Counted from the stretch's first letter, positions 3,487 through 29,424 are shown. The stretch is DNA of 62,952 nucleotides from Candidatus Omnitrophota bacterium (GCA_028692655.1 JAQUWY010000007.1:1-62952); one strand, 5' to 3'. The notes: generated from the letters alone by a model not told the origin. Translations and numbers: made by a program.

Positions 3487-4413
3487 CTAAACCCACCAGT
3501 AGCCTAATTCTTTCAAAATTCTTGGCCGGTGCTGCCAATCACTAAGAACCTTTACCCATATCTCAAGATATACTTTCTTATCGTAAATCTTCTCTATTTC
3601 TGAACGAGCCAAGGTGCCTATTGCTTTAAGGCCACGGCCCTGCTTGCCAATTACTATCTTTTTCTGAGAATTTCTCTGCACATATATTGTTACTTCTATA
3701 TGCACCACCTTTTTCCTGTCTTTTATGGCTGATACCTCTACTGCTACTGAATGGGGCAGTTCCCTGTCCAAGGCCAGAAAAAGCTTTTCCCTGACAATAT
3801 CGGCTATTCTAAACTGTATAGGAAAATCGGTCAGAGTATCTGTATCATAGAATGGGCCTGATTGCGGAAGATTTTCAAGTAAAGCCGCTCTAAGCTCATC
3901 TATATTCTTGCCGGTCTTGGCTGAAACCGGAATAAACTGTGCTGAAGGTTTTTTACCAACTTTTTCATCCGCCTTTTTTTGCCAAGCTTCAATGTAGCTA
4001 TTTAGATATACGGATTTTAGGTCTATTTTATTTAAAACCATGATTACAGGGATATTTTGAGTACTGATAATATCCATTAAGCGGGATTCTTCTTTGCCGA
4101 TGCGCCGAGAAACATCAACAACATACACAATAATATCGCTACCTTCTATCGAGCGTTTGGAAATAACATTGAGATGCTCAGCCAGATGGTCCTTGAAAGA
4201 GTGCATCCCGGGAGTATCCACAAATACTATTTGAGCTCCTTCTAAATTTAATATACCTCGTATCTGATGCCGGGTAGTTTGAGGAATGGGAGAAATGATA
4301 CTTACTTTCTCTCCTACTAAAGCATTCATCAAAGTAGATTTTCCTGTATTCGGCCGGCCTAACACCGCCACAAATCCTGCTTTAAATTTTTTTTCGCTTT
4401 CTTTTGTTATCAT
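3487..4413 (-). CDS. era: GTPase Era
   Basis: GRPNTGKSTL, PQTTR, DTPG, NKID, C-terminal KH domain with GKQG. Confidence 0.97.
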   Translation of the reverse strand: MITKESEKKFKAGFVAVLGRPNTGKSTLMNALVGEKVSIISPIPQTTRHQIRGILNLEGAQIVFVDTPGMHSFKDHLAEHLNVISKRSIEGSDIIVYVVDVSRRIGKEESRLMDIISTQNIPVIMVLNKIDLKSVYLNSYIEAWQKKADEKVGKKPSAQFIPVSAKTGKNIDELRAALLENLPQSGPFYDTDTLTDFPIQFRIADIVREKLFLALDRELPHSVAVEVSAIKDRKKVVHIEVTIYVQRNSQKKIVIGKQGRGLKAIGTLARSEIEKIYDKKVYLEIWVKVLSDWQHRPRILKELGYWWV

Positions 4414-6425
4414 TGACCGTTGTCCTTTACCCTTGCTAAACGGGTTTTTTCATAAAAATTATCTGTATATTCCCGGAACAAAGAAACTTCTAAAAATTCG
4501 GCTTTTAAGGGGTTATATCCATAAGAAGCCAAGAGAAAATAAGCCGTGGAAGAAAGCGAACCCGTCTTATCGCCTTTAGGTGTGCGCCAGCCGTGCCCGG
4601 TATCTATGAAAGGGCTTGTCGCATAAGGAAGACAAGGGTCCTGCTTACCCGATGCCGAAAGAGAAGTGATTATCATCTGCCCGAGCTGATCTGTATAAAA
4701 CCTGGCTTTGGTAAAATATATTTTAGACTTCGCGGGATTTATATCTTTAAAATATTCTGCCATTATCTCGAAAGATAAAATCATTTGAGATGTCCATTCT
4801 CCGGAAACAACGCCCCCCCTGGGAATATTCTTGGCTTTAGCGAAATCAAACCCCTGTATTTTAAATTCCTGCTGTCCCCGTTTGAATATAGCAGTAACCT
4901 CGCAATGTTTGACGGCAAAATCAAGAATTACCTCGGGGTCCATGTTTAATTCATAGAGCGTCTTGGGGCCGAAAGCCGCGATGGACCAGGCATAGGTATC
5001 AGTTGCTATCGTAGAATCTCCTTTGCCCCGTTTAACCGGAAGGTGAAAATCGGTATAACAATAGCGCTCAATCCACGACTTTATTTTATCCGCGGCGCGG
5101 CGGTATTCATAGTCACCGCTTAGCTCGTAGAATAATTCAAAAAAAGCGTAAGCATCAAGATTGTGCTCTGTGGAATACCAATCGTGCATAGGCCCGCCTT
5201 TAAGGCCGCATTCAGAATCCATCATCGATAACAAGAATCCTGCCACCTTTTGTGCTATAGCAATATACCTGTCATCTCCGCTTTCTTTGGTATAACATAA
5301 AGCCGCCAGGCCAATCCAGGCGTTGGGCCCGCTATGTATAACATATTCGAATACCTGGCCGTTTGAAAAATACGCGTTATAAATATCCTGGCCATGGTTA
5401 ACCCTTGCAAGGTAAAAATCAAGTATCCTGGAAGCCTCTCTCAAATGACCCTGGCAGGAAAAAACTATAGCAGCCAGCGCCTGATCGTAAGTAAAACAAG
5501 CTTCCTCTAAGCTGGCGTCTCCTTCGTAACTTATGACTAAACCGGTGGATAAATCCTGGCGGTTCCTTATCCAGCCAAACATCCCCTTTAAGATCTTTCC
5601 CGAAACAGCGCTTCTGGCTTTTTCTAACTCCCGAGCCTTGCGGCCGGCAAAAACGGCTGTTTCTTCTCTTTTTTTCTTCTGTGCTCTAAAAAAATCGTTT
5701 TCTTTCTTTAGGCGGGAAAGCTCGGATTCAAGAGAAAAAATTCTCTGTTCCAGGTCATGTGCCAGGTCAGACTTCCTGCTCTGCCTTGAAACCCGGTCAT
5801 ATTCTTCCTTCTTGCTGAGTATATTTTCATCCAGAAGCTTTATGCGGGAAGCTATTTCTTCTATACGTTCTTTATAAAATAAACTTTCTGACTGCTGATC
5901 CAGGAAGGTTTCGTCTAAAGAAGAGCTTTTTTGAATAATATCGATGTAATCACTAATCAACTCGTGGTTCTGGCGATTAAGCGAACGGGTTTCTAAAAAT
6001 AGTGCCGACGATACTATGGCCAATAGCAGTAACGAGGCTATTAAAACCCTGGGCACATATTTCTTCGCTATCGCAAAATTGAAAAGCAGTGCTGCTTTAT
6101 TTTTCGGTATATCTTTAAATTCCAAACCTGCCTTATATACTTTGTAAGAATCCTGTTGTTTCGCCTGCATCCAGGCAACGGTCGCCTGGGTTTCTATTGT
6201 CCTGTGCCCAAATGGAAGATGAATCTTCAATAGCAAACTGGACGGATCCTTGAGCCTATCCCAAAAACCCCACCATAAATCATTGGCTACCAGGCATATT
6301 CCGGCTTTGGCTATATCACGAGTAAACCCCTGCAGCCAGGGGGTAATCTGTTTACCATTCTCGTCCTGGACGACAAACTCTACCGGCAATACTGTCGATA
6401 TTCTTAAATATTTTCTCCTATTCAT
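4410..6425 (-). CDS. PilZ domain - TM helix - coiled coil - putative six-hairpin glycosidase-like domain protein
   Basis: RRKYLR and DIAKAG PilZ-like motifs; TM VLIASLLLLAIVSSALFL; coiled coil; TYDQALA / STEHNLD motifs. Start moved to MNRRK. Confidence 0.6.
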   Translation of the reverse strand: MNRRKYLRISTVLPVEFVVQDENGKQITPWLQGFTRDIAKAGICLVANDLWWGFWDRLKDPSSLLLKIHLPFGHRTIETQATVAWMQAKQQDSYKVYKAGLEFKDIPKNKAALLFNFAIAKKYVPRVLIASLLLLAIVSSALFLETRSLNRQNHELISDYIDIIQKSSSLDETFLDQQSESLFYKERIEEIASRIKLLDENILSKKEEYDRVSRQSRKSDLAHDLEQRIFSLESELSRLKKENDFFRAQKKKREETAVFAGRKARELEKARSAVSGKILKGMFGWIRNRQDLSTGLVISYEGDASLEEACFTYDQALAAIVFSCQGHLREASRILDFYLARVNHGQDIYNAYFSNGQVFEYVIHSGPNAWIGLAALCYTKESGDDRYIAIAQKVAGFLLSMMDSECGLKGGPMHDWYSTEHNLDAYAFFELFYELSGDYEYRRAADKIKSWIERYCYTDFHLPVKRGKGDSTIATDTYAWSIAAFGPKTLYELNMDPEVILDFAVKHCEVTAIFKRGQQEFKIQGFDFAKAKNIPRGGVVSGEWTSQMILSFEIMAEYFKDINPAKSKIYFTKARFYTDQLGQMIITSLSASGKQDPCLPYATSPFIDTGHGWRTPKGDKTGSLSSTAYFLLASYGYNPLKAEFLEVSLFREYTDNFYEKTRLARVKDNGQ

Positions 6426-6484
6426 AAAGCTTATCTCTATATCCTGGTTACCCAGTAAAATATGCGGGTTAGTGGGCCGGGAAA

Positions 6485-6847
6485 TCATTTACGAAGCTTA
6501 TTTAGCTTACTGAAAAATATTTTGAACTCGGTTAGTTCTCTCACTTTTTCCAAATCAGGATCCCTGAGCATATAAGAAAACTCTTCGTATCCTATCAGAA
6601 CCGCCCGTTTAAGTTCTTTTAAAGCTTCCTGAGGGCAATCGAGAAGGGAAAGGCTGCAGGCTAAATTATAATGCACAAAAGGATCATCGGGTTTAAGCTC
6701 GGCGAGTTTTCTATCAACGGCAAGGCCTTCCTGATAAAAGCCTTTGCGGGTATAGGAATCTCCCAAAGAAATCAGGACATTTACAAAATTCGGGCATTCT
6801 TTAAGTATGCTTTCATAAAATTTTATTTCGAAGTCTTTCCTTCTCAT
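6485..6847 (-). CDS. TPR-repeat protein
   Basis: LGDSYTRKG, YNLACSLS motifs; AGGAG upstream of MRRK start. Confidence 0.8.
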   Translation of the reverse strand: MRRKDFEIKFYESILKECPNFVNVLISLGDSYTRKGFYQEGLAVDRKLAELKPDDPFVHYNLACSLSLLDCPQEALKELKRAVLIGYEEFSYMLRDPDLEKVRELTEFKIFFSKLNKLRK

Positions 6848-6877
6848 TCTGTCGCTTCGCTCCTGCACGCTGATGAT

Positions 6878-6955
6878 CGCAGATTAGATACCGCAGATTG
6901 ACACAGGTATTATTCTGTGATCATCTGCGATTTTTCATCTGTGGCCATCTGCGTT
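6878..6955. repeat. CAGAT/ATCTG degenerate hairpin element, copy 1
   Basis: Tandem CGCAGATT units facing ATCTGCG/ATCTGTG units. Confidence 0.7.
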
Positions 6956-9303
6956 TTCTCTAGGATGATTTCTTCACGCAAGAGATATATCGCTTCTTCA
7001 AGATATTTTTTGAACTTTTGATAGTCTTTCTGCTCTACAATCGGCTTCTTCACAACGAATTCCTGCTTAAAATTAATAATTCCTGCGGCTTGCCGGCAGG
7101 AAACAGTAAGCTTAAACCAGGGGTTGTCTGAAATTACCTGACTTGGCAAATATTTTATAGTTACATTCTCGGGCAGCACTATATTGATATCAGCCGACTT
7201 AGTGTACAATCCTTCAAAATCTATGGGATAATTTCTTTCCTCTTTGCTTATCAATTTATAATCCAGATATACCTGATCCAAAACCGGGACTATCCGCAGT
7301 TTACCCGCCGGATTAAAAAATTTGTCGGCAAAGAAATTATAAATAAGCCTGGGGTTAGAGTCTAAACCTTCTATATTTTCAATTTTGTAATCCTTTAACT
7401 GCGAAAGAGAAGATATCTCCATCATTTTTTTCTGGATATTCTCTTTTATTATTTCAGGATGTGTATATTTTACATACCAGCGGTAAGAAGCAGCAAAAAA
7501 TCCCTCGCTTATAACACTTCTGGTAATGTCAGCGTTTTCCTCCAGTGAAATTTTTATATCCATGCCGTAACGAATAACATTATCGCTACTTTGTGGTGTA
7601 ACAAGCATTTCCCAGGTATCATCGAAAAAGACTAAAACTTTCCTGTCCTGATCTGAGGAAGGTATCCGGCCAAAAGAAGTTGTTTCGGCGGTAGGATCCA
7701 TAAATATAAGTTTACCCTCAATCTGCACAGCACAAATGGCATGATTAAAGTTTAAAGAAGGAAAACTTTCTTCTGCCGGATAAACTTGCCGGGTAGGAAT
7801 CAATACGGGATAAGCCGAAAGGCCGGCTTTTTTCAACATAGCTACCAGTAAAATAGCCTGGTCTTTGCAGTCGCCATAACGGTTAGTAAACACTTCCTGG
7901 GCCGAATGAGGTTCGTAGCCGCTGTCTCCGTATTCTATTGCCACATAGCGAATATTTTGGGCCACGAATTCATAAATGCTCTTGGCTTTTTGATAATCAT
8001 CCGCTTTGCCTTTTATCAAACCTTCTACAGCCGCTAAAGCATCTTTGCCTAAATCTAATTTCCCCTTATACAAAGATTTCCACCAGGTATAAATCTGGCC
8101 CCAAGAAGAAAAGCTTGAAACCGCAAATGCAGGATTAATCATAGACTCCGGCGGCATAGCGTATTCAGGAATGATGGATTTTACTTCCTTGAATTCCCAG
8201 CTATATATATTATTATCGGCATCCTGGCTCATAACCGGCTCAAGATTAATTTCTTTAGCATATCCCGGGTTAAAAAATTTGAATCTAGGCTGGGTTTTCT
8301 TAGGGACTATAAGCCGGAAAGAGGCTTTAAATATGGGGTAGGCTTCCCGCAAACGATAAATAAAGCTAAAGTCTTTTTCGTTGACAAGTTTAGAAGAATA
8401 AATTTTTAGTTTATACTCTATAATAGCGCCTACGTCGACTGCTGGCATAGAGACAATAAATGCCCGGGAATTACTGTATAGAGGAAAGTTAAGATACCTG
8501 CTGACATCTCTGATGTTTTCTCCTCCGGCATATACAACTTTGCCGTCTTTGGTGATAGTGCGGGCAAACTCCAATTCTACTCTCTGATAAGTAGAATCAT
8601 ACCCAACCTCAACTTCAGCAAGGCTTTTGCCCCGTTCTTTTAAAACCTTTTCTACAACATGAATTGAAGAAATAGATGTATTCTCTTCTGTTATTCTGGT
8701 TTCTTCATCCACAAGAAGCATTAGAGCAGCTTCGTCTTCTATTTTCTGAATAAATTCCTGGGAAGATTTATCCAGTTCCTCTACCTGGGGCGGGATTTTA
8801 CCCTCACTATTTGTCTTTATAAATTTTATTCTCTTTTGGGCTTTTTGTTTAAACCGGCCTTGAATTTTAGCATAGATTTTTAAAGCTTTAGGGAAAAGGT
8901 TTTTATTCTCCAAGACATCCCCGTAAAGATAAAGGTATTCTGAATCTTGCGGTTGGAGTTTAATCTGCTCAAAAAGAGCCATAGCAAAGTCGTATTCTTT
9001 TAGACGGGCGTATGTTTTAGCAAGAAGGTGGCTGGCTACAGGATTATCAAAACCAATGAGAATATCTTTTGCTTTTTGATAATCTCTAAAATTATAGTAG
9101 AACTGGGCTAGCTCGAGCCTTAATTTGGCATCATCCGGATTAAGAGCAAGCGCCTGTTGATAACTGGCGGTTAAATTCTGATAGTTCCTGCTAAAATCCG
9201 TAAGGCTTTCCTGCTGATAAAGACACCTGTTCGAAGCAGAACAGGAATAGAAACTCACCAGTAATAAAACTATTATTAATTTATGAAATGATTTTAAGCA
9301 CAC
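6910..9303 (-). CDS. Probable lipoprotein: TPR + DUF3857 + transglutaminase-like domain
   Basis: Lipobox-like FYSC; GDCKD, FNHAI, MDPT give Cys-His-Asp triad. Confidence 0.85.
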   Translation of the reverse strand: MCLKSFHKLIIVLLLVSFYSCSASNRCLYQQESLTDFSRNYQNLTASYQQALALNPDDAKLRLELAQFYYNFRDYQKAKDILIGFDNPVASHLLAKTYARLKEYDFAMALFEQIKLQPQDSEYLYLYGDVLENKNLFPKALKIYAKIQGRFKQKAQKRIKFIKTNSEGKIPPQVEELDKSSQEFIQKIEDEAALMLLVDEETRITEENTSISSIHVVEKVLKERGKSLAEVEVGYDSTYQRVELEFARTITKDGKVVYAGGENIRDVSRYLNFPLYSNSRAFIVSMPAVDVGAIIEYKLKIYSSKLVNEKDFSFIYRLREAYPIFKASFRLIVPKKTQPRFKFFNPGYAKEINLEPVMSQDADNNIYSWEFKEVKSIIPEYAMPPESMINPAFAVSSFSSWGQIYTWWKSLYKGKLDLGKDALAAVEGLIKGKADDYQKAKSIYEFVAQNIRYVAIEYGDSGYEPHSAQEVFTNRYGDCKDQAILLVAMLKKAGLSAYPVLIPTRQVYPAEESFPSLNFNHAICAVQIEGKLIFMDPTAETTSFGRIPSSDQDRKVLVFFDDTWEMLVTPQSSDNVIRYGMDIKISLEENADITRSVISEGFFAASYRWYVKYTHPEIIKENIQKKMMEISSLSQLKDYKIENIEGLDSNPRLIYNFFADKFFNPAGKLRIVPVLDQVYLDYKLISKEERNYPIDFEGLYTKSADINIVLPENVTIKYLPSQVISDNPWFKLTVSCRQAAGIINFKQEFVVKKPIVEQKDYQKFKKYLEEAIYLLREEIILEKTQMATDEKSQMITE

Positions 9304-9571
9304 TTTTAATATCCTGGCCTTCCTTTATTCCCAGGCTTTTAGCTTTACGGCTGGCTGAATACACGTTGGAACTCAAAGCCTGCTTGATGGTAGAAACACC
9401 TTTGATTAAAACCGCCGTATCTTTAAAGCTGTCGGCAGCTTTTAAGTTTAGATAGCCGCACATCACATAACCGCGCCTGCCTTTTAGAATTATCAGCTTC
9501 TTTTTCCCCAGAGGCATACAATAAGCTGCGATATTTTTTCTGCCTATCCTTATCTTTTTAGTTTGCAGCAT
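9281..9571 (-). CDS. DUF1805/YunC family protein
   Basis: GYVMCGYLN motif, 96 aa. Confidence 0.85.
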   Translation of the reverse strand: MLQTKKIRIGRKNIAAYCMPLGKKKLIILKGRRGYVMCGYLNLKAADSFKDTAVLIKGVSTIKQALSSNVYSASRKAKSLGIKEGQDIKSVLKIIS

Positions 9572-9601
9572 TTTTAAAAGATTTGCTTTTTAAGATACTA
9601 T

Positions 9602-10753
9602 CTATTTAAGAGCTTTTATAAATCTCTCTATGCGGATTATCGCTTCTTTTAAATTGTCCAGAGTGTTGGCGTAAGATATCCTTATATGCGTATCAAATTC
9701 GTCGCCAAAAGCTTTTCCCGGAACGACAGCGACTTTTTCCTGAAATAAAAGCTTCTTCGCAAAATCCAGGCAATTAACATGGAATTTTTTCAGGGAAGGG
9801 AAACAATAAAAAGCGCCTTGAGGCTTTGGAGTATAGAATCCCAGGCGGTTTAATTCCTTAACTACAAAGTCTCTTCTTCTTTTATATTGGCTCCGCATAT
9901 CCGCGACTTCTCTCTGAGCCCGCAGAGCTTCTATCGCGGCAACTTGCGAAACAATAGGGACACACATCATTGAAAAAGAATGGATTTTAGTCATGGCAGA
10001 AATAATTTCCTTGTCAGCACATACATACCCCACCCTAAACCCTGTCATCGCATACCCTTTGGAAAACCCATTAAGCAGAATCGTTTTACGTTTGGCTTTT
10101 TTATCTAAAGCAGTAAAAGGTACATGCTTAAAATCGTAGGTCAACTCATCATAAACTTCATCGCTTATAACAAGCGCCCCGCTTAAAGCTATCAGACGCC
10201 AAATCTTTGCGAGCTCCGAACCAGAATAATGAACCCCAGTCGGGTTTGAAGGATTGTTCAAGATAATAGCTTTAGGTTTTACAGATAGGGCGTTCTTTAG
10301 CTGCTTTAAATCTATCTTAAAATCACTTTTTTCGTCAGTAATTAGATACTGCACTTTTGCTCCGGCAATTTGTGCTAAAGCCGGATAAGCTACGTAATGA
10401 GGGCTTATTACTAAAACCACGTCTTTTGGCTCTACTATGGCACGCAAAGCAAGGTCAAGCCCTTCACTGACACCGGTAGTTATTAAAATTTCATTTTCCG
10501 GTTTATAGTTAAGCGAGTATTTAGAATTTAGAAATTCAGAAATCCCCTGACGAAGGCTAAGTAAACCGCTGTTAGAAGTATAAGAAGTCAAGCCTTCTTC
10601 AAGAGCAGTAATAGCTTTTTCCCTGATTCTCCAAGGGGTTATAAAATCCGGCTCGCCTACACCCAGGGAAATAACCTCCGGCATGCCCAGCACCAGGTCA
10701 AAGAATTCCCTGATTCCCGAAGGAGAAACTTTTTTTATGTGTTTAGCAATCAT
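9602..10753 (-). CDS. Class I/II PLP-dependent aminotransferase
   Basis: LGVGEPDF, NPSNPTG, SDEVY, GFSKGYAMTGFRVG; start moved to MIAK. Confidence 0.93.
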   Translation of the reverse strand: MIAKHIKKVSPSGIREFFDLVLGMPEVISLGVGEPDFITPWRIREKAITALEEGLTSYTSNSGLLSLRQGISEFLNSKYSLNYKPENEILITTGVSEGLDLALRAIVEPKDVVLVISPHYVAYPALAQIAGAKVQYLITDEKSDFKIDLKQLKNALSVKPKAIILNNPSNPTGVHYSGSELAKIWRLIALSGALVISDEVYDELTYDFKHVPFTALDKKAKRKTILLNGFSKGYAMTGFRVGYVCADKEIISAMTKIHSFSMMCVPIVSQVAAIEALRAQREVADMRSQYKRRRDFVVKELNRLGFYTPKPQGAFYCFPSLKKFHVNCLDFAKKLLFQEKVAVVPGKAFGDEFDTHIRISYANTLDNLKEAIIRIERFIKALK

Positions 10754-10762
10754 ATTATTTCT

Positions 10763-10833
10763 GTGCCTGTACACCAGCCACCAGTGCACCAGTTAATTTT
10801 TCTCACCAGTGCTATGGCGTTACTGTAACCGGC
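10763..10833. repeat. CACCAG(T/C) ~7-mer repeat tract
   Basis: caccagc-caccagt-gcaccagt ... caccagt in lrp-aminotransferase gap. Confidence 0.55.
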
Positions 10834-10839
10834 ACTCCT

Positions 10840-11322
10840 TTAATAGGTTATCGGCAATCTTTGGTTTTTGTCTTTTTTTGTTAAAATTATCCCGTCTTCT
10901 TTATATTTTTTAAGCATAAAATGTGTAGCCGTAGCTTTTACCGAACTCAAAGGAGCCAGCTTTTCGGAAACAAATCCAGCCACAGTCTGTATATCTTTGC
11001 CGGAGACCTCTAACAGCAAATCATACGTACCCGACAAAAGATAGCAATTTTTTACTTCCGGAAAACGGTAAATCCTTTCAGCGATAAGATCGAAACCTAC
11101 ATCTTTCTGCGGTGCTATTCTAACTTCTATAAGCGCTACGACGTTCTGTTCATTTTTGAGTTTTGTTTTATTAATAATAGCTTTATATTTTACGATAATT
11201 CCTTTTTTTTCGTAACTCTTTACTGCTTTTTCTATTTCTTTGATACTCTTGCCGGTTAATTTTTTCAGGTCTTCAAAAGAAATCCTGGCATTACTTTCTA
11301 AAATCTCCAAGATATCATCCAT
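10840..11322 (-). CDS. Lrp/AsnC family transcriptional regulator
   Basis: ILEILESNARIS HTH, SGTYDLLL; AAGGAGG RBS before MDDIL. Confidence 0.93.
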   Translation of the reverse strand: MDDILEILESNARISFEDLKKLTGKSIKEIEKAVKSYEKKGIIVKYKAIINKTKLKNEQNVVALIEVRIAPQKDVGFDLIAERIYRFPEVKNCYLLSGTYDLLLEVSGKDIQTVAGFVSEKLAPLSSVKATATHFMLKKYKEDGIILTKKDKNQRLPITY

Positions 11323-11606
11323 ATTATCCTCCTTGCGTAATTTTATTGGAGCTTTCATAATTTATAAATACCTTCTGCGGGTTTAATATCTCCTAATAGC
11401 TTCGCTGGCAGGCTATTGTAATCTTCCAAAATAGCCACATCTGCATCTTCATCATCCGAAACAGAAACCTGAAAGCTTAGAATATTTTAACCCCTCGCAA
11501 GATACGCCGGGCTTTAGGGCCATCTCTATGAATAGCCCGAGAGGGCTTTGCTCTTAAATTCGGCACACTCTGTATTTTACCAAATTATTCCTTTATGCAT
11601 AGAAAA

Positions 11607-25916: not shown

Positions 25917-27044
25917 ATGGAAAAAGATGACTTTGCAATAGCTTTCAGTAAAAGAAAATCGGAAGAAGCCGCAAAAGAGGTTTCTCTAAAAATAAAGAGC
26001 AGTTTTTCTAAAAGTATTGGTTTCCTATTCGTATTTTTTACCCCTCATTACAACCCTTCAAATATTTTAGCAACTTTAAACCTTACTTTAAAACCGGAAA
26101 AAATTTTAGGCATACAGTCTCCATTCCTTGTTTTTGAAGATACCCTTGCCCAGGAAGGAATTGTAGTTTGCTGTATGAGCGGACAAGATGTCTCATTTGA
26201 AGAAAGCTTTATGGAAGAAAAACCTTCCAAGGAAATCGAATCATTTCTCAGGCTCGCATTCAGAAAGATACGTAAAAAAAATTTCTCTCTCCTCTCTTTT
26301 CTTGGGCCGGGAATCAATCCTGTTCCATATTTAAGCGGTTTAAGGCTCTTTTTGGGAGAAATATTTACTCTCGCCGGTGGCGGCTTCACAAAAAAGTATT
26401 CTTCCAACACCTGGCAAATAGTGAACAACGACATAATAGAAGGTGCTGTAAATATTATAGTTAAAGGCTTAGACACAACATCTTTGTCTTTGGGGGGATA
26501 TCTGCCCTTGGGAAAACCTTTTGTTATAACCAAAGCCGCTCCTGCAAGAAATTTAGTTATAGAAATCAATAATGAACCGGCCATAAACATATATCGGAAG
26601 TATTTAGAGGAAAAATTCGAACAATTCCAAGATAATAAGCTATTTTCCCTTTACCCCCTGGGCATAAAAAACGGGGAAAAATTTGACGTAATAAGAGTGC
26701 TGGATTCTTTAGCAGACGGCTCTCTCGCTTGTGTAGGAAACTTAAAAGAAAAAGATACCGGCCACATAATGTTTCTTGATACCGGCCTGCTGCAAAATCA
26801 AATAGAATCTCAGCTTTCCCCCCTGGTAGCTAAAAACCAGGGATTGGTAATCATAGTAGGCTCTCTATTACAAAAAGAAATCATTAAGGATAATTCTTAT
26901 ACGGTGGTAAAATTAATAAAGAAATCGCTGGGTAAAAATTTTTCCGTTATTGGGATGTATTGCGATTATTCCATGCGTTCCTCAAGGGAAACTAACTCTA
27001 TAGGGATAGACTCAGGTAATACCTTGCTTACTTTTTGGCAATAG
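25917..27044 (+). CDS. FIST-domain sensor protein
   Basis: AGG, PLGKPFVIT, EINNEPA, YPLG FIST pattern. Confidence 0.75.
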   Translation: MEKDDFAIAFSKRKSEEAAKEVSLKIKSSFSKSIGFLFVFFTPHYNPSNILATLNLTLKPEKILGIQSPFLVFEDTLAQEGIVVCCMSGQDVSFEESFMEEKPSKEIESFLRLAFRKIRKKNFSLLSFLGPGINPVPYLSGLRLFLGEIFTLAGGGFTKKYSSNTWQIVNNDIIEGAVNIIVKGLDTTSLSLGGYLPLGKPFVITKAAPARNLVIEINNEPAINIYRKYLEEKFEQFQDNKLFSLYPLGIKNGEKFDVIRVLDSLADGSLACVGNLKEKDTGHIMFLDTGLLQNQIESQLSPLVAKNQGLVIIVGSLLQKEIIKDNSYTVVKLIKKSLGKNFSVIGMYCDYSMRSSRETNSIGIDSGNTLLTFWQ

Positions 27045-28510
27045 TTATGGAAAAAATATTTTTCTTTCTTGAACCGCTTGGCGGAACCATAGTTTTATTT
27101 TTTATTACCATACTGATGCTCGTAATGCATATAGTAAGAAAAAATAAGGCTATTTTATTCCTCACGAAAGAAAGAAATCATCTCAATGCCACAATCAACG
27201 ACCTGGATCAGCAGGCTAAATTAATAATCAAAAGCGATATGGAAGTAAAACTTTACCAGCAAGAGATAGAGAGTGAACTTAATAAACTTACTTTGGTAGA
27301 AAACCTCATTCTTTCCTCAATACATATCCTTGACAAAGACAAGCTGCTCCTTCAGGTAGATGAAAAAGTCATAGCTGCTCTTGATTTTAGAAAAAGCCTG
27401 ATACTGGACTTTAAGACCCTAGAGGAAAAAGTAAACATAGGCTTCGAGGCCGCGGAAATAGAGGCAATAAAAAGTATACTCCAGTACAAAAAGGATATCA
27501 TGAAAGATTCCCTTATCGTAAATCAAGATTCTGAAATATATAAACAACTTGCTCTCAGCAGCGGTTTAAAGAATACTCTAATAGCCCCTTTAAAAACTCA
27601 GGAAGAAGTGTACGCGATGCTTATCGTTTCTGAATTAACTAATTCAGCTGAAATAAAAAAATCTCAAAGAGAGGCTTTCCTGATAATCTGCATGTACCTG
27701 GGCCAATGCCTTGAAAATATCCGCCTTTTTGAAAACTTATATGTAGTAAAAGACGACCTGGAAAAAAAGATCAAGGAACGCACCAATGAGCTGGTAAAAA
27801 GTTTGAGGGAAATAGAGGTGATAAGCAAAGCGAAATCGGATTTTATTTCAAGCGTATCTCATGAATTAAGAACACCCCTTACCTCCGTAAAAGGTTTTTC
27901 TTCCCTGCTTGCTGACGAACGCTTCGGAAAACTGCCGCAAGAAGCAAAACAAAGATTGCTGAAAATAGATGAAAATGTAAATAAACTTATGGAAATAGTT
28001 AATACTCTTCTTGACATTTCAAGAATTGAATCAGGAAAAATGGAATTAAAAATATCTACTTTTGATATAGTAAGACTTATCAAAGAGGTAACAGACTTTC
28101 TTTCACCTCAGATAGAAGAAAAAAACCTTCAATTATCGGTAAGCCTGCCCGAAAAAATAAATGTTTTTATGGACAAGAACCTTATAGAGAGGGTATTGAT
28201 AAATATAATAAATAATGCTATAAAATTTACCCCGGAAAAAGGGAAAATTACCGTAAAATGTGAAAAGGGAGCAAATGAAACTACGGTATCTATCGCTGAT
28301 ACCGGCTATGGGATGTCGAAAGAAGATTCGGGGAAGATATTTCAGGAATTCTTCCGGGCCGCTAATCCGGAAAGCAGCAAAGTGAAGGGTACGGGCCTGG
28401 GCCTTTCTCTGGTTAAAAGAATAATTGAAACACATAAAGAGAAAATATGGGTTGAGTCTGAAATAAATAAAGGCACAGTTTTTTATTTTACATTAAAATG
28501 CGCGAATTAA
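27035..28510 (+). CDS. Membrane-anchored sensor histidine kinase
   Basis: SHELRTPL, NNAIKF, DTGYG, GTGLGL; N-terminal TM. Confidence 0.95.
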   Translation: MAIVMEKIFFFLEPLGGTIVLFFITILMLVMHIVRKNKAILFLTKERNHLNATINDLDQQAKLIIKSDMEVKLYQQEIESELNKLTLVENLILSSIHILDKDKLLLQVDEKVIAALDFRKSLILDFKTLEEKVNIGFEAAEIEAIKSILQYKKDIMKDSLIVNQDSEIYKQLALSSGLKNTLIAPLKTQEEVYAMLIVSELTNSAEIKKSQREAFLIICMYLGQCLENIRLFENLYVVKDDLEKKIKERTNELVKSLREIEVISKAKSDFISSVSHELRTPLTSVKGFSSLLADERFGKLPQEAKQRLLKIDENVNKLMEIVNTLLDISRIESGKMELKISTFDIVRLIKEVTDFLSPQIEEKNLQLSVSLPEKINVFMDKNLIERVLINIINNAIKFTPEKGKITVKCEKGANETTVSIADTGYGMSKEDSGKIFQEFFRAANPESSKVKGTGLGLSLVKRIIETHKEKIWVESEINKGTVFYFTLKCAN

Positions 28511-29424
28511 AAATTTTGGTCGTCGATGATGACCCTGACATTTTGGAACTGATAGATGCAACTCTTAAGGAGCAGTTCGAAGTTATTACGGCTTCTGACG
28601 GAAAAGAAGCTATGGAAAAACTGAGAACCGACTCTCCAAATCTTCTGGTTCTCGACTACATGCTGCCCGATATCCAGGGGCCCCAAATATGCAAGGCAAT
28701 ACGCAAAGACACCCTCCTGATGAATGTTCCGATATTGATGCTTACCGGCAAAGGAGAAATAGAAGATAAAGTTTTCGGCTTAGAATCAGGGGCAGATGAT
28801 TATATGCTTAAACCTTTTTCTCCGCAGGAGCTTATTGCCAGGGTAAGAATGTTGATACGCCGCTCCGGAGCCAATTTAGATGCTAATCCTCTGACCCGGC
28901 TGCCGGGAAACGTATCAATAAATAAAGAATTGAGCGAGCAAATAGAAAAAAATAATAAATTTTCCGTTCTCTATATCGATATAGACAACTTCAAAGCACT
29001 TAACGACCACTATGGCTTTGAACAAGGAGATACCGTCATAAAAACAACAGCCAGAATTTTAATAGATGCCATACATCTTAAAGGATCCGTAAACGATTTT
29101 ATCGGCCACATAGGGGGAGACGATTTCGTTATTATTACAAGCCTGGAGCTCGCCGAGGGCATAGCCAAAAAGATAGTTATTGATTTTGATAAAGTTTCGC
29201 CTAAATTTTTTGAAGAAGAAGAAAGGGCAAAAGGATATATAGAGTCAAAGGGAAGAGACGGACAAATTCACAAATTTAGTTTTCCTACCATATCCATAGG
29301 CATTGTTTCTAATCTTAACCGGACATTTACTCATACCGCTCAAATAAGCTCTCTTGGAGCAGAAATGAAGGGCTTAGCCAAAAAGTTTCCGGAAAGTAAG
29401 TACATTTTTGATAAACGCACCTAA
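28498..29424 (+). CDS. Response regulator with GGDEF (GGDDF) diguanylate cyclase domain
   Basis: VVDDD, LDYMLP receiver; DIDNFKALND, GGDDF. Confidence 0.92.
   Translation: MRELKILVVDDDPDILELIDATLKEQFEVITASDGKEAMEKLRTDSPNLLVLDYMLPDIQGPQICKAIRKDTLLMNVPILMLTGKGEIEDKVFGLESGADDYMLKPFSPQELIARVRMLIRRSGANLDANPLTRLPGNVSINKELSEQIEKNNKFSVLYIDIDNFKALNDHYGFEQGDTVIKTTARILIDAIHLKGSVNDFIGHIGGDDFVIITSLELAEGIAKKIVIDFDKVSPKFFEEEERAKGYIESKGRDGQIHKFSFPTISIGIVSNLNRTFTHTAQISSLGAEMKGLAKKFPESKYIFDKRT

Follow-up and report, generated by a model that had tools for sequence, protein, structure and literature searches.

A PilZ-transmembrane-(alpha/alpha)6-barrel fusion protein of Omnitrophota as a candidate inside-out c-di-GMP effector

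To our knowledge, the partners of the PilZ effectors of cyclic di-GMP (c-di-GMP) known so far lie in the cytoplasm or within the membrane, for example cellulose synthase, Alg44/Alg8, flagellar motors and transcription factors, and LapD has been the main example of c-di-GMP acting outside the cytoplasm. Here we describe a gene from Candidatus Omnitrophota bacterium (GCA_028692655.1 JAQUWY010000007.1:1-62952; a stretch of 62,952 nucleotides (nt), hereafter the window, with coordinates counted from its first letter) whose product joins a PilZ domain, a single transmembrane (TM) helix, a predicted periplasmic helical hairpin and a predicted (alpha/alpha)6 barrel in one chain, and which we call the PilZ-barrel protein. 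Its layout is closest to that of Alg44 and its logic to that of LapD/LapG, and its barrel is closest to GH76 in sequence and to the AGE epimerases in fold. Alg44, the alginate co-polymerase of Pseudomonas aeruginosa, likewise has an N-terminal cytoplasmic PilZ domain of canonical type, a single TM helix and, in its periplasmic part, a helical hairpin, and c-di-GMP bound to it inside the cell controls an envelope process (Galperin & Chou, bioRxiv 10.1101/814665). However, the periplasmic domain of Alg44 is of the HlyD/membrane fusion protein (MFP) type instead of an (alpha/alpha)6 barrel, and the PilZ-barrel protein has no significant HlyD match (HlyD_2, E 0.086, on the coiled region). Moreover, Alg44 works with the glycosyltransferase Alg8 in a large alginate operon, whereas there is no synthase near the PilZ-barrel gene. 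In the LapD/LapG system of Pseudomonas fluorescens, the gene for the receptor is paired with that for a periplasmic transglutaminase-like cysteine protease (PMC3032545, PMC4359373), a pairing that recurs at our locus, where the triad of the neighbouring lipoprotein is intact. LapD differs in that it senses c-di-GMP via a degenerate EAL domain through HAMP and in that its periplasmic domain is not a six-hairpin barrel, and LapG belongs to another family of the clan than the lipoprotein. In Pfam searches at E<=0.1, neither our receptor nor the lipoprotein matched HAMP, degenerate GGDEF-EAL or LapG models, and the pairing itself is missing in about half of the genomes that carry the PilZ-barrel gene.

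We tentatively read the PilZ-barrel protein as an Omnitrophota-specific inner-membrane effector for inside-out c-di-GMP control of a periplasmic glycan-active enzyme, a proposal to which we give somewhat less than an even chance. Its N-terminal domain matches the Pfam PilZ model (E 9.5e-8, 32.7 bits against a cut-off of 22.5), as do 38 of 38 aligned orthologues. In the AlphaFold2 (AF2) model, strands at amino acids (aa) 35-41, 52-57, 63-69, 84-90, 97-111 and 116-125 precede a helix starting at aa 129; six strands followed by a C-terminal helix are the canonical PilZ layout, in which this helix is the read-out element (Galperin & Chou, bioRxiv 10.1101/814665). The RxxxR loop is R25-K-Y-L-R29 (within RRKYLR), and R25 and R29 are conserved in at least 90% of orthologues. 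The second motif, defined as [D/N]hSxxG by the same authors, reads D58-I-A-K-A-G63, with the D, the hydrophobic residue and the Gly kept and the Ser, which contacts c-di-GMP in MapZ, replaced by Ala. Across 121 orthologues, this position is Gly in about 75% and Ser in about 14%, the remainder being Ala or Cys. A preliminary description of the window had reported a PilZ domain with RxxxR intact and DIAKAG in place of DxSxxG, and this domain is real and scores above the Pfam cut-off; the other sequence features that it listed (open reading frames (ORFs), one TM helix, a helical region and the motifs RRKYLR, YDQALA and STEHNLD) are likewise all present where it had located them. Some stand-alone PilZ domains have lost binding, but those in fusion proteins have so far always retained it (Galperin & Chou, bioRxiv 10.1101/814665). 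Judged from its motifs, binding of c-di-GMP by the PilZ domain is likely rather than assured.

The host genome (1.65 Mb) encodes 8 GGDEF, 6 HD_5 (HD-GYP-type) and 13 PilZ domains, and no EAL domain was found in the domain scan of it. Enzymes that make c-di-GMP and enzymes that break it are thus both encoded, and because GGDEF, HD-GYP-type and PilZ domains are all present, c-di-GMP signalling is, by its gene content, clearly in use, and the PilZ-barrel protein contains the only one of the 13 PilZ domains that lies within a large multidomain protein. A c-di-GMP-producing two-component cassette also lies in the window about 20 kb from the PilZ-barrel gene, where genes for a FIST-domain protein, a HisKA/HATPase histidine kinase and a REC-GGDEF response regulator stand in a row (25917-29424, plus strand).

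Hydropathy analysis found exactly one hydrophobic span, aa 147-166 (Kyte-Doolittle 19-residue maximum 2.44, with no other window above 1.6), flanked by Lys-Lys and Arg on its N-terminal, PilZ side. With a single TM helix and positive charges N-terminal to it, the PilZ domain is therefore predicted to be cytoplasmic and the remainder of the protein periplasmic. In the full-length AF2 model (monomer; predicted local distance difference test (pLDDT) 84.5, predicted template-modelling score (pTM) 0.76), one unbroken helix, aa 129-235, comprises the C-terminal helix of the PilZ domain, the TM span and a first periplasmic arm; it breaks at aa 236-239 and is followed by a second helix, aa 240-309, which runs into the barrel. 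Both periplasmic arms are of equal length, about 70 residues or roughly 10 nm each. In the orthologue alignment, the region between PilZ domain and barrel gains or loses residues almost exclusively at the predicted turn (the one further gap, of a single residue, is found in four orthologues and lies late in their PilZ domain), and the commonest connector lengths differ by 14 residues, not 7, which fits the addition of one heptad per arm. The last turns of arm 2 (W306, R310 and Q311, all invariant) are modelled as the first helix of the barrel. Equal arms, length changes at the turn, the step of 14 and the merging of arm 2 into the barrel suggest that the connector probably forms an antiparallel hairpin, about 10 nm long, which would tie the barrel rigidly to the C-terminal helix of the PilZ domain; since it folds back towards the membrane, the barrel is likely to sit near the inner membrane. 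The preliminary description had placed the distal enzyme on a stalk, with about 130 residues of coiled coil; the AF2 model and the pattern of insertions and deletions favour the two-armed hairpin, spanning aa 167-309, over a rod of that length.

Modelled with an alignment of 38 sequences, the barrel reached a pLDDT of 87.8 and a pTM of 0.90 and consists of eleven helices in alpha/alpha pairs plus an N-terminal one, with a beta-hairpin insert at aa 530-547. A Foldseek search against the PDB gave 213 matches at E<=1e-3, and 50 of the 50 matches listed are six-hairpin enzymes. Among these, cellobiose, glucose and GlcNAc 2-epimerases come first (best E 7.9e-9, template-modelling (TM-) score about 0.6), along with a GH15 isomaltose glucohydrolase, the mannoside hydrolase MmpH, GH76 mannanases (4v1s, 6shm, 6y8f and 7nl5, E about 1e-6) and GH88 hydrolases. 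With identities of 7-15%, the matches establish the fold without favouring any single family, and we hold the domain architecture of the protein and the (alpha/alpha)6 fold to be close to certain, the latter in agreement with the (alpha/alpha)6 distal domain that the preliminary description had suggested. The AGE-superfamily enzymes (cellobiose 2-epimerase, YihS) are aligned over the whole barrel with TM-scores of 0.60-0.63, but at 8-12% identity and with no sequence-level match; furthermore, the residues kept throughout the barrel family are carboxylates and tyrosines, with conserved His in the PilZ-fused subfamily only.

At the sequence level, the nearest family is GH76. This protein itself is not matched by the Pfam GH76 model even at E<=1, but weak Pfam matches were obtained among the 38 orthologues to GH76 (29 sequences; best E 6.7e-6), GH127 (19), C5-epim_C (11) and GH88 (6). 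Sequence searches of the PDB required a barrel-only profile, which we built from 24 diverse copies; it retrieved two GH76 structures at E about 4.5e-4, the better one at 4.4e-4, whereas the whole protein, or a profile that included the coiled coil, returned coiled-coil noise only. Like the alpha-1,6-mannanases of GH76 (PDB 4c1s, 6shm, 6u4z), the barrel has the (alpha/alpha)6 fold and an N-x-W at the start of the third helix, although identity is 12-15% and the TM-score 0.55-0.58. In profile alignments to 4mu9 and 6u4z, the D-D-N-[IV]-W of GH76 aligns with G387-P388-N-A-W391. The Asp-Asp pair before N-x-W is the catalytic nucleophile and acid/base of GH76, and Gly387 is kept in 38 of 39 members of the barrel family. 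We rejected membership of the barrel in GH76 because this pair is replaced by Gly387-Pro388 in the profile alignment. The glycosidase reading of the preliminary description is therefore not borne out as it stands: GH76 is the nearest sequence family and invariant carboxylates lie at the N-termini of odd-numbered helices, but the catalytic pair is gone.

The motifs YDQALA (aa 334-339) and STEHNLD (aa 439-445) contain Y334, D335, T440, E441, H442, L444 and D445, which are invariant or nearly so in 38 orthologues. Across 39 diverse copies of the barrel, including those in giant proteins, Y334, D335, G387, E441, G488, D497, G546, F549, E564 and Y622 are kept in 38 or 39, and Y373, W391, N443, D491, D548 and W634 are also strongly kept. 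In the AF2 model, the conserved residues lie at the N-termini of helices 1, 3, 5, 7, 9 and 11 or in the loops before them, positions that match the active-site location of six-hairpin enzymes and would form one pocket. Having four conserved carboxylates and two tyrosines, it would resemble the pocket of a glycosidase more than one built for the His-based chemistry of AGE epimerases, and His385, His442 and His632 are invariant in PilZ-fused orthologues only, not across the wider family. We consider it moderately probable that the barrel is catalytic. The most conserved stretch of the barrel, KRGKGDSTIATDTY, is at the same time its least confident loop (pLDDT 52-61 in both AF2 runs) and may be a mobile active-site lid.

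An exhaustive search for the barrel returned 875 cluster representatives at E<=1e-3. Carriers without PilZ include proteins of about 370-460 aa, at least one of which has a lipobox, and ORFs of 33,383, 17,411, 16,310 and 13,817 aa in related genomes (G151:C5, G139:C13, G061:C6 and G069:C3, respectively), three of the barrel copies lying in G069. These ORFs are Omnitrophota giant genes. Where members of the family carry an organism name, it is that of Omnitrophota or of an unclassified bacterium, and one paralogue is called a GH76 protein by NCBI. By sequence comparison, the barrel is an uncharacterised (alpha/alpha)6 family of its own and a distant relative of GH76. Giant proteins of Omnitrophota have been reported to contain a GH76-like fold, and their genes to have pilZ genes and binding-protein-dependent sugar transporters downstream (West-Roberts et al., bioRxiv 10.1101/2023.11.21.568195). 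The GH76-like domain of the 'Archaeovorin' in that study is probably of the same family, as the giant-ORF copies have the same conserved residues, but there the domain is extracellular and pilZ a separate gene, whereas here both are fused across the membrane within 692 aa.

More than 1435 homologues match the C-terminal part and have the same length and a PilZ annotation. Public annotation calls homologues 'PilZ domain-containing protein' or 'hypothetical protein' only, and those that carry an organism name are from 'Candidatus Omnitrophota/Omnitrophica bacterium'. The best 120 homologues listed are 54-68% identical in the C-terminal part, two closer matches excepted. A scan with one genome per species found 343 encoding loci, and the best 80 of these are mostly labelled Omnitrophota, with about a quarter bearing the automatic label 'uncultured Planctomycetia/Planctomycetales' and a few 'bacterium'. 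When 200 other genomes of the phylum were sampled evenly, 63 had a match at E<=1e-10, of which 44 had a full-length orthologue; the PilZ-barrel protein is widespread in Omnitrophota, not universal. A short contig of 5213 bases filed as a Methanosarcinales archaeon metagenome-assembled genome (MAG) (L021, JAIWAR010000068.1) carries the order transglutaminase - PilZ-barrel - era with 66% identity, and is probably mis-binned or the trace of an archaeon-associated Omnitrophota cell. A literature search found no description of a PilZ - (alpha/alpha)6 barrel fusion, in line with the preliminary description, which had not recognised the architecture as a described one.

Table 1. Features of the PilZ-barrel locus, in window coordinates.
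Feature	Coordinates (nt)	Strand	Extent and basis
PilZ - TM - helical hairpin - (alpha/alpha)6 barrel gene	4410..6488	-	692 aa from first ATG; ORF list and translation
PilZ domain, cytoplasmic (predicted)	6075..6422	-	aa 23-138, with a beta-barrel at aa 35-125; Pfam PF07238, genome-wide scan, AF2 secondary structure
Single TM helix	5991..6050	-	aa 147-166; hydropathy scan and AF2
Periplasmic helical hairpin (predicted)	5562..5990	-	arm 1 aa 167-235, turn 236-239, arm 2 240-309; AF2
Periplasmic (alpha/alpha)6 barrel (predicted)	4458..5591	-	aa 300-677; AF2, Foldseek against PDB, conservation, GH76 profile alignment
Barrel loop KRGKGDSTIATDTY	4995-5036	-	aa 486-499
Small tetratricopeptide repeat (TPR) protein gene	6485..6868	-	127 aa; Pfam TPR models and NCBIfam TPR_END_plus
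TPR-DUF3857-transglutaminase-like lipoprotein gene	6910..9303	-	797 aa; Pfam, orthologue lipoboxes, invariant triad
DUF1805 protein gene	9281..9571	-	96 aa; Pfam PF08827 and synteny
era GTPase gene	3487..4413	-	Pfam MMR_HSR1 and KH_2

The PilZ-barrel gene (Table 1), for which the database gene call begins at M22 (nt 6425) and gives 671 aa instead of the 692 aa from the first ATG, overlaps by 4 nt both the small TPR gene at its start and era at its stop. Genes for an AsnC/Lrp-type regulator, a class-I aminotransferase and a DUF1805 protein (9281-11358, minus strand) precede the lipoprotein gene, which the DUF1805 gene overlaps by 23 nt and which is separated from the TPR gene by 41 nt. A terminator scan of the minus strand found no convincing terminator between the DUF1805, lipoprotein, TPR, PilZ-barrel and era genes, and a terminator-like hairpin at 3443-3426, beyond era. 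Given these overlaps, the short gap and the lack of an intervening terminator, co-transcription of the PilZ-barrel, TPR and lipoprotein genes is plausible, with era, a housekeeping gene, probably the last gene of the transcription unit. The large neighbour consists of TPRs (aa ~35-160), DUF3857 (213-377; 100.5 bits), a transglutaminase-like core (426-539; Transglut_core, PF01841, 44.9 bits against a cut-off of 23) and a weakly matched DUF3858-like end, and it weakly matches PDB 3kd4, a putative protease. We read it as a lipoprotein because its N-terminal hydrophobic, signal-like segment ends in Cys21 and 15 orthologues have clear lipoboxes, and 60 of 60 sequences keep its putative catalytic triad, C479/H521/D536. 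The small TPR protein, with neither signal peptide nor hydrophobic segment (hydropathy maximum 0.76), is probably cytoplasmic. Pfam models and lipobox evidence bear out both neighbours named in the preliminary description, a TPR protein and a transglutaminase-like lipoprotein. The label of an envelope-modifying operon that it gave to the group was an interpretation, and it sits less easily with a TPR protein that is probably cytoplasmic and with other flanking genes belonging to amino-acid metabolism and era.

Three distant orthologous loci share the gene order AsnC regulator, aminotransferase, DUF1805, TPR-DUF3857-transglutaminase, small TPR, PilZ-barrel and M20-family deacylase. We counted neighbourhoods in the best 80 of the 343 loci, statements on the upstream side covering those with enough upstream sequence. 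The transglutaminase gene is directly upstream in nearly all of these, with the small TPR gene between in most, and a DUF1805 gene is often upstream in related loci; downstream, about half of the 80 have a deacylase gene of the ArgE/DapE family, with era next. A hint of diaminopimelate or peptidoglycan metabolism from the aminotransferase and the deacylase was dropped, since NCBIfam gave only generic matches and the window has no deacylase gene. In the sample of 200 genomes, taking a lipoprotein match at E<=1e-100 as orthologue-grade, 20 genomes have both genes, 24 the PilZ-barrel gene only, 4 the lipoprotein gene only and 152 neither (Fisher p 7e-12, not corrected for phylogeny), and in 19 of the 20 two-gene genomes the genes are close together on one contig. 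The link between lipoprotein and PilZ-barrel protein is strong but not obligatory, since the lipoprotein gene adjoins in about half of the carrier genomes. Operon conservation, which the preliminary description had proposed as a check, accordingly holds for the lipoprotein and TPR order in close loci, but the pairing does not extend to the other half of the carriers.

Some lineages have an additional gene of about 365 aa, encoding a multi-pass HExxH (M48/HtpX-like) protein, between the small TPR and PilZ-barrel genes (loci L053, L060, L062, L064, L071, L072, L074, L077 and L085). In the Omnitrophota MAG BS750m-G22 (L089, 1395-10764), GH2-like, GH116, GH94 and M48 genes replace the transglutaminase lipoprotein gene beside the PilZ-barrel gene, and another locus (L073) has a GH2-like gene directly upstream. 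A further locus (L012, 25-6037) encodes a stand-alone barrel lipoprotein (lipobox LPGC), after which come a two-PilZ protein, a solute-binding protein, two ABC permeases and a GPH-like transporter; here barrel and PilZ are linked as separate genes, in a sugar-uptake context. A specific relationship between the PilZ domain of the fusion and that di-PilZ protein was rejected, since they show only generic similarity (20% identity). The repeated pairing of the barrel with PilZ, fused or adjoining, supports a functional link between both, and the sugar-related contexts of orthologues and paralogues support a carbohydrate substrate of the barrel.

Starting from the architecture, topology, fold, conserved pocket, gene linkage and c-di-GMP network described above, we infer how ligand binding, signal transmission, catalysis and substrate might fit together. 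c-di-GMP would bind the N-terminal PilZ domain via the RxxxR loop and the [D/N]-h-x-x-x-G turn, and binding would shift the C-terminal helix of that domain, which is predicted to run unbroken through the membrane into arm 1 of the periplasmic hairpin of about 10 nm. Because arm 2 ends as the first helix of the barrel, helix movement could be passed mechanically to the barrel. The barrel would be a glycan-active enzyme with D335, E441, D497 and E564 as candidate residues, together with Y334 and Y622, and the signal might alter its activity, substrate access, lid position, orientation, or pairing or oligomeric state. The target of the barrel would be a periplasmic or envelope glycan, probably the cell's own, which it would cleave or modify in some other way, and in about half of the carrier genomes it would probably act with the transglutaminase-like cysteine-peptidase lipoprotein and the small TPR protein.

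Several points weigh against this proposal. The contact Ser of the PilZ domain is Ala here and Gly in most orthologues, and binding of c-di-GMP may therefore be weak or absent. The hairpin is based on a monomer AF2 model, and the placement of the conserved residues in a single pocket is drawn from secondary structure only. No Pfam or NCBIfam model matches aa 300-692 of this protein at cut-off, the catalytic Asp-Asp of GH76 aligns to Gly387-Pro388, and the top fold matches are epimerases or isomerases, not hydrolases. Finally, no glycosyltransferase, synthase or polysaccharide-export genes were found in the conserved operon neighbourhood. The alternatives considered below and the proposal of a c-di-GMP-controlled glycan-active enzyme are not all mutually exclusive.

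First, and as the main rival, the locus may encode a switch that resembles LapD/LapG but is assembled from unrelated parts, in which the barrel, whose main task would then not be catalysis, under control of c-di-GMP captures or releases the adjoining transglutaminase-like peptidase, which in turn trims a surface protein, possibly a giant one. LapD/LapG is the established inside-out c-di-GMP system with a transglutaminase-like protease (PMC3032545, PMC4359373), and the parts for an analogue are at hand here: the gene for a putative c-di-GMP receptor whose single TM helix leads to a periplasmic domain neighbours that for a periplasmic lipoprotein, which has an invariant triad and, for protein binding, TPR repeats; both genes co-occur and adjoin far above chance, as the counts given above show for the genome sample and for the best 80 loci, and the barrel also occurs within the giant ORFs of 13,817 to 33,383 aa. 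However, 24 of the 44 sampled genomes with a full-length PilZ-barrel protein lack a peptidase match at E<=1e-100, a few of them carrying weak, paralogue-level matches on other contigs, and in some lineages glycosidase genes occupy the position of the peptidase gene. Furthermore, the carboxylate-rich pocket is also conserved in paralogues without a PilZ or peptidase partner, which points to catalysis or ligand binding by the barrel itself, the peptidase lies outside the family of LapG, and the receptor has no HAMP, GGDEF or EAL domain in Pfam searches. We regard such a switch as unlikely. Its fuller form, a phylum-specific LapD/LapG analogue in which PilZ drives a rigid lever and the barrel captures, releases or acts with the peptidase to time the trimming or shedding of giant surface proteins used in attachment or attack, we consider very unlikely.

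A second possibility is that the barrel binds a glycan without catalysis and serves either as an outside-in sensor that signals to PilZ and cytoplasmic partners such as the small TPR protein, or as an Alg44-like secretion scaffold whose hairpin points towards the outer membrane. Loss of the GH76 catalytic pair is in keeping with a non-catalytic barrel, the gene for the probably cytoplasmic TPR protein is translationally coupled to the PilZ-barrel gene, and Alg44 has the same succession of PilZ domain, TM helix and periplasmic helical hairpin, with the weak HlyD_2 match (E 0.086) on the coiled region pointing the same way. However, the four carboxylates and two tyrosines persist in very divergent copies and contexts, as is more usual for an enzyme than for a module that only binds, and we judge a non-catalytic barrel to be decidedly unlikely. 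The scaffold version in particular was set aside as unlikely, since synthase or export genes were not found nearby, and Pfam and AF2 revealed none of the lipoyl or beta-barrel MFP domains.

Third, the PilZ domain may be degenerate and serve protein-protein contacts only, in which case the protein would be a constitutive membrane-anchored periplasmic enzyme. The Ser of [D/N]hSxxG is missing here and in about 85% of orthologues, and loss of binding has a precedent in stand-alone PilZ domains (bioRxiv 10.1101/814665), but RxxxR, the D/N, the hydrophobic residue and the Gly are near-invariant over hundreds of orthologues, about 14% of which keep the Ser. Since fusion proteins have so far always retained binding (Galperin & Chou, bioRxiv 10.1101/814665) and the genome has a large c-di-GMP network, we find a non-binding PilZ domain improbable.

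What is new here is a candidate PilZ effector fusion of inside-out topology that carries a new six-hairpin family. If our preferred reading, control of a periplasmic glycan-active enzyme by c-di-GMP, is true, the continuous helices that connect the PilZ domain with the periplasmic enzyme-like barrel would give c-di-GMP direct control over chemistry outside the cytoplasm. Omnitrophota are very small bacteria, possibly host-dependent or predatory, for which we know of no tractable cultures. The barrel recurs in giant proteins thought to act on prey cell walls, so that knowing its substrate would help to explain what the giant proteins do as well as how c-di-GMP signalling works. It would also define a new six-hairpin carbohydrate-active family in which the GH76 catalytic pair is replaced.

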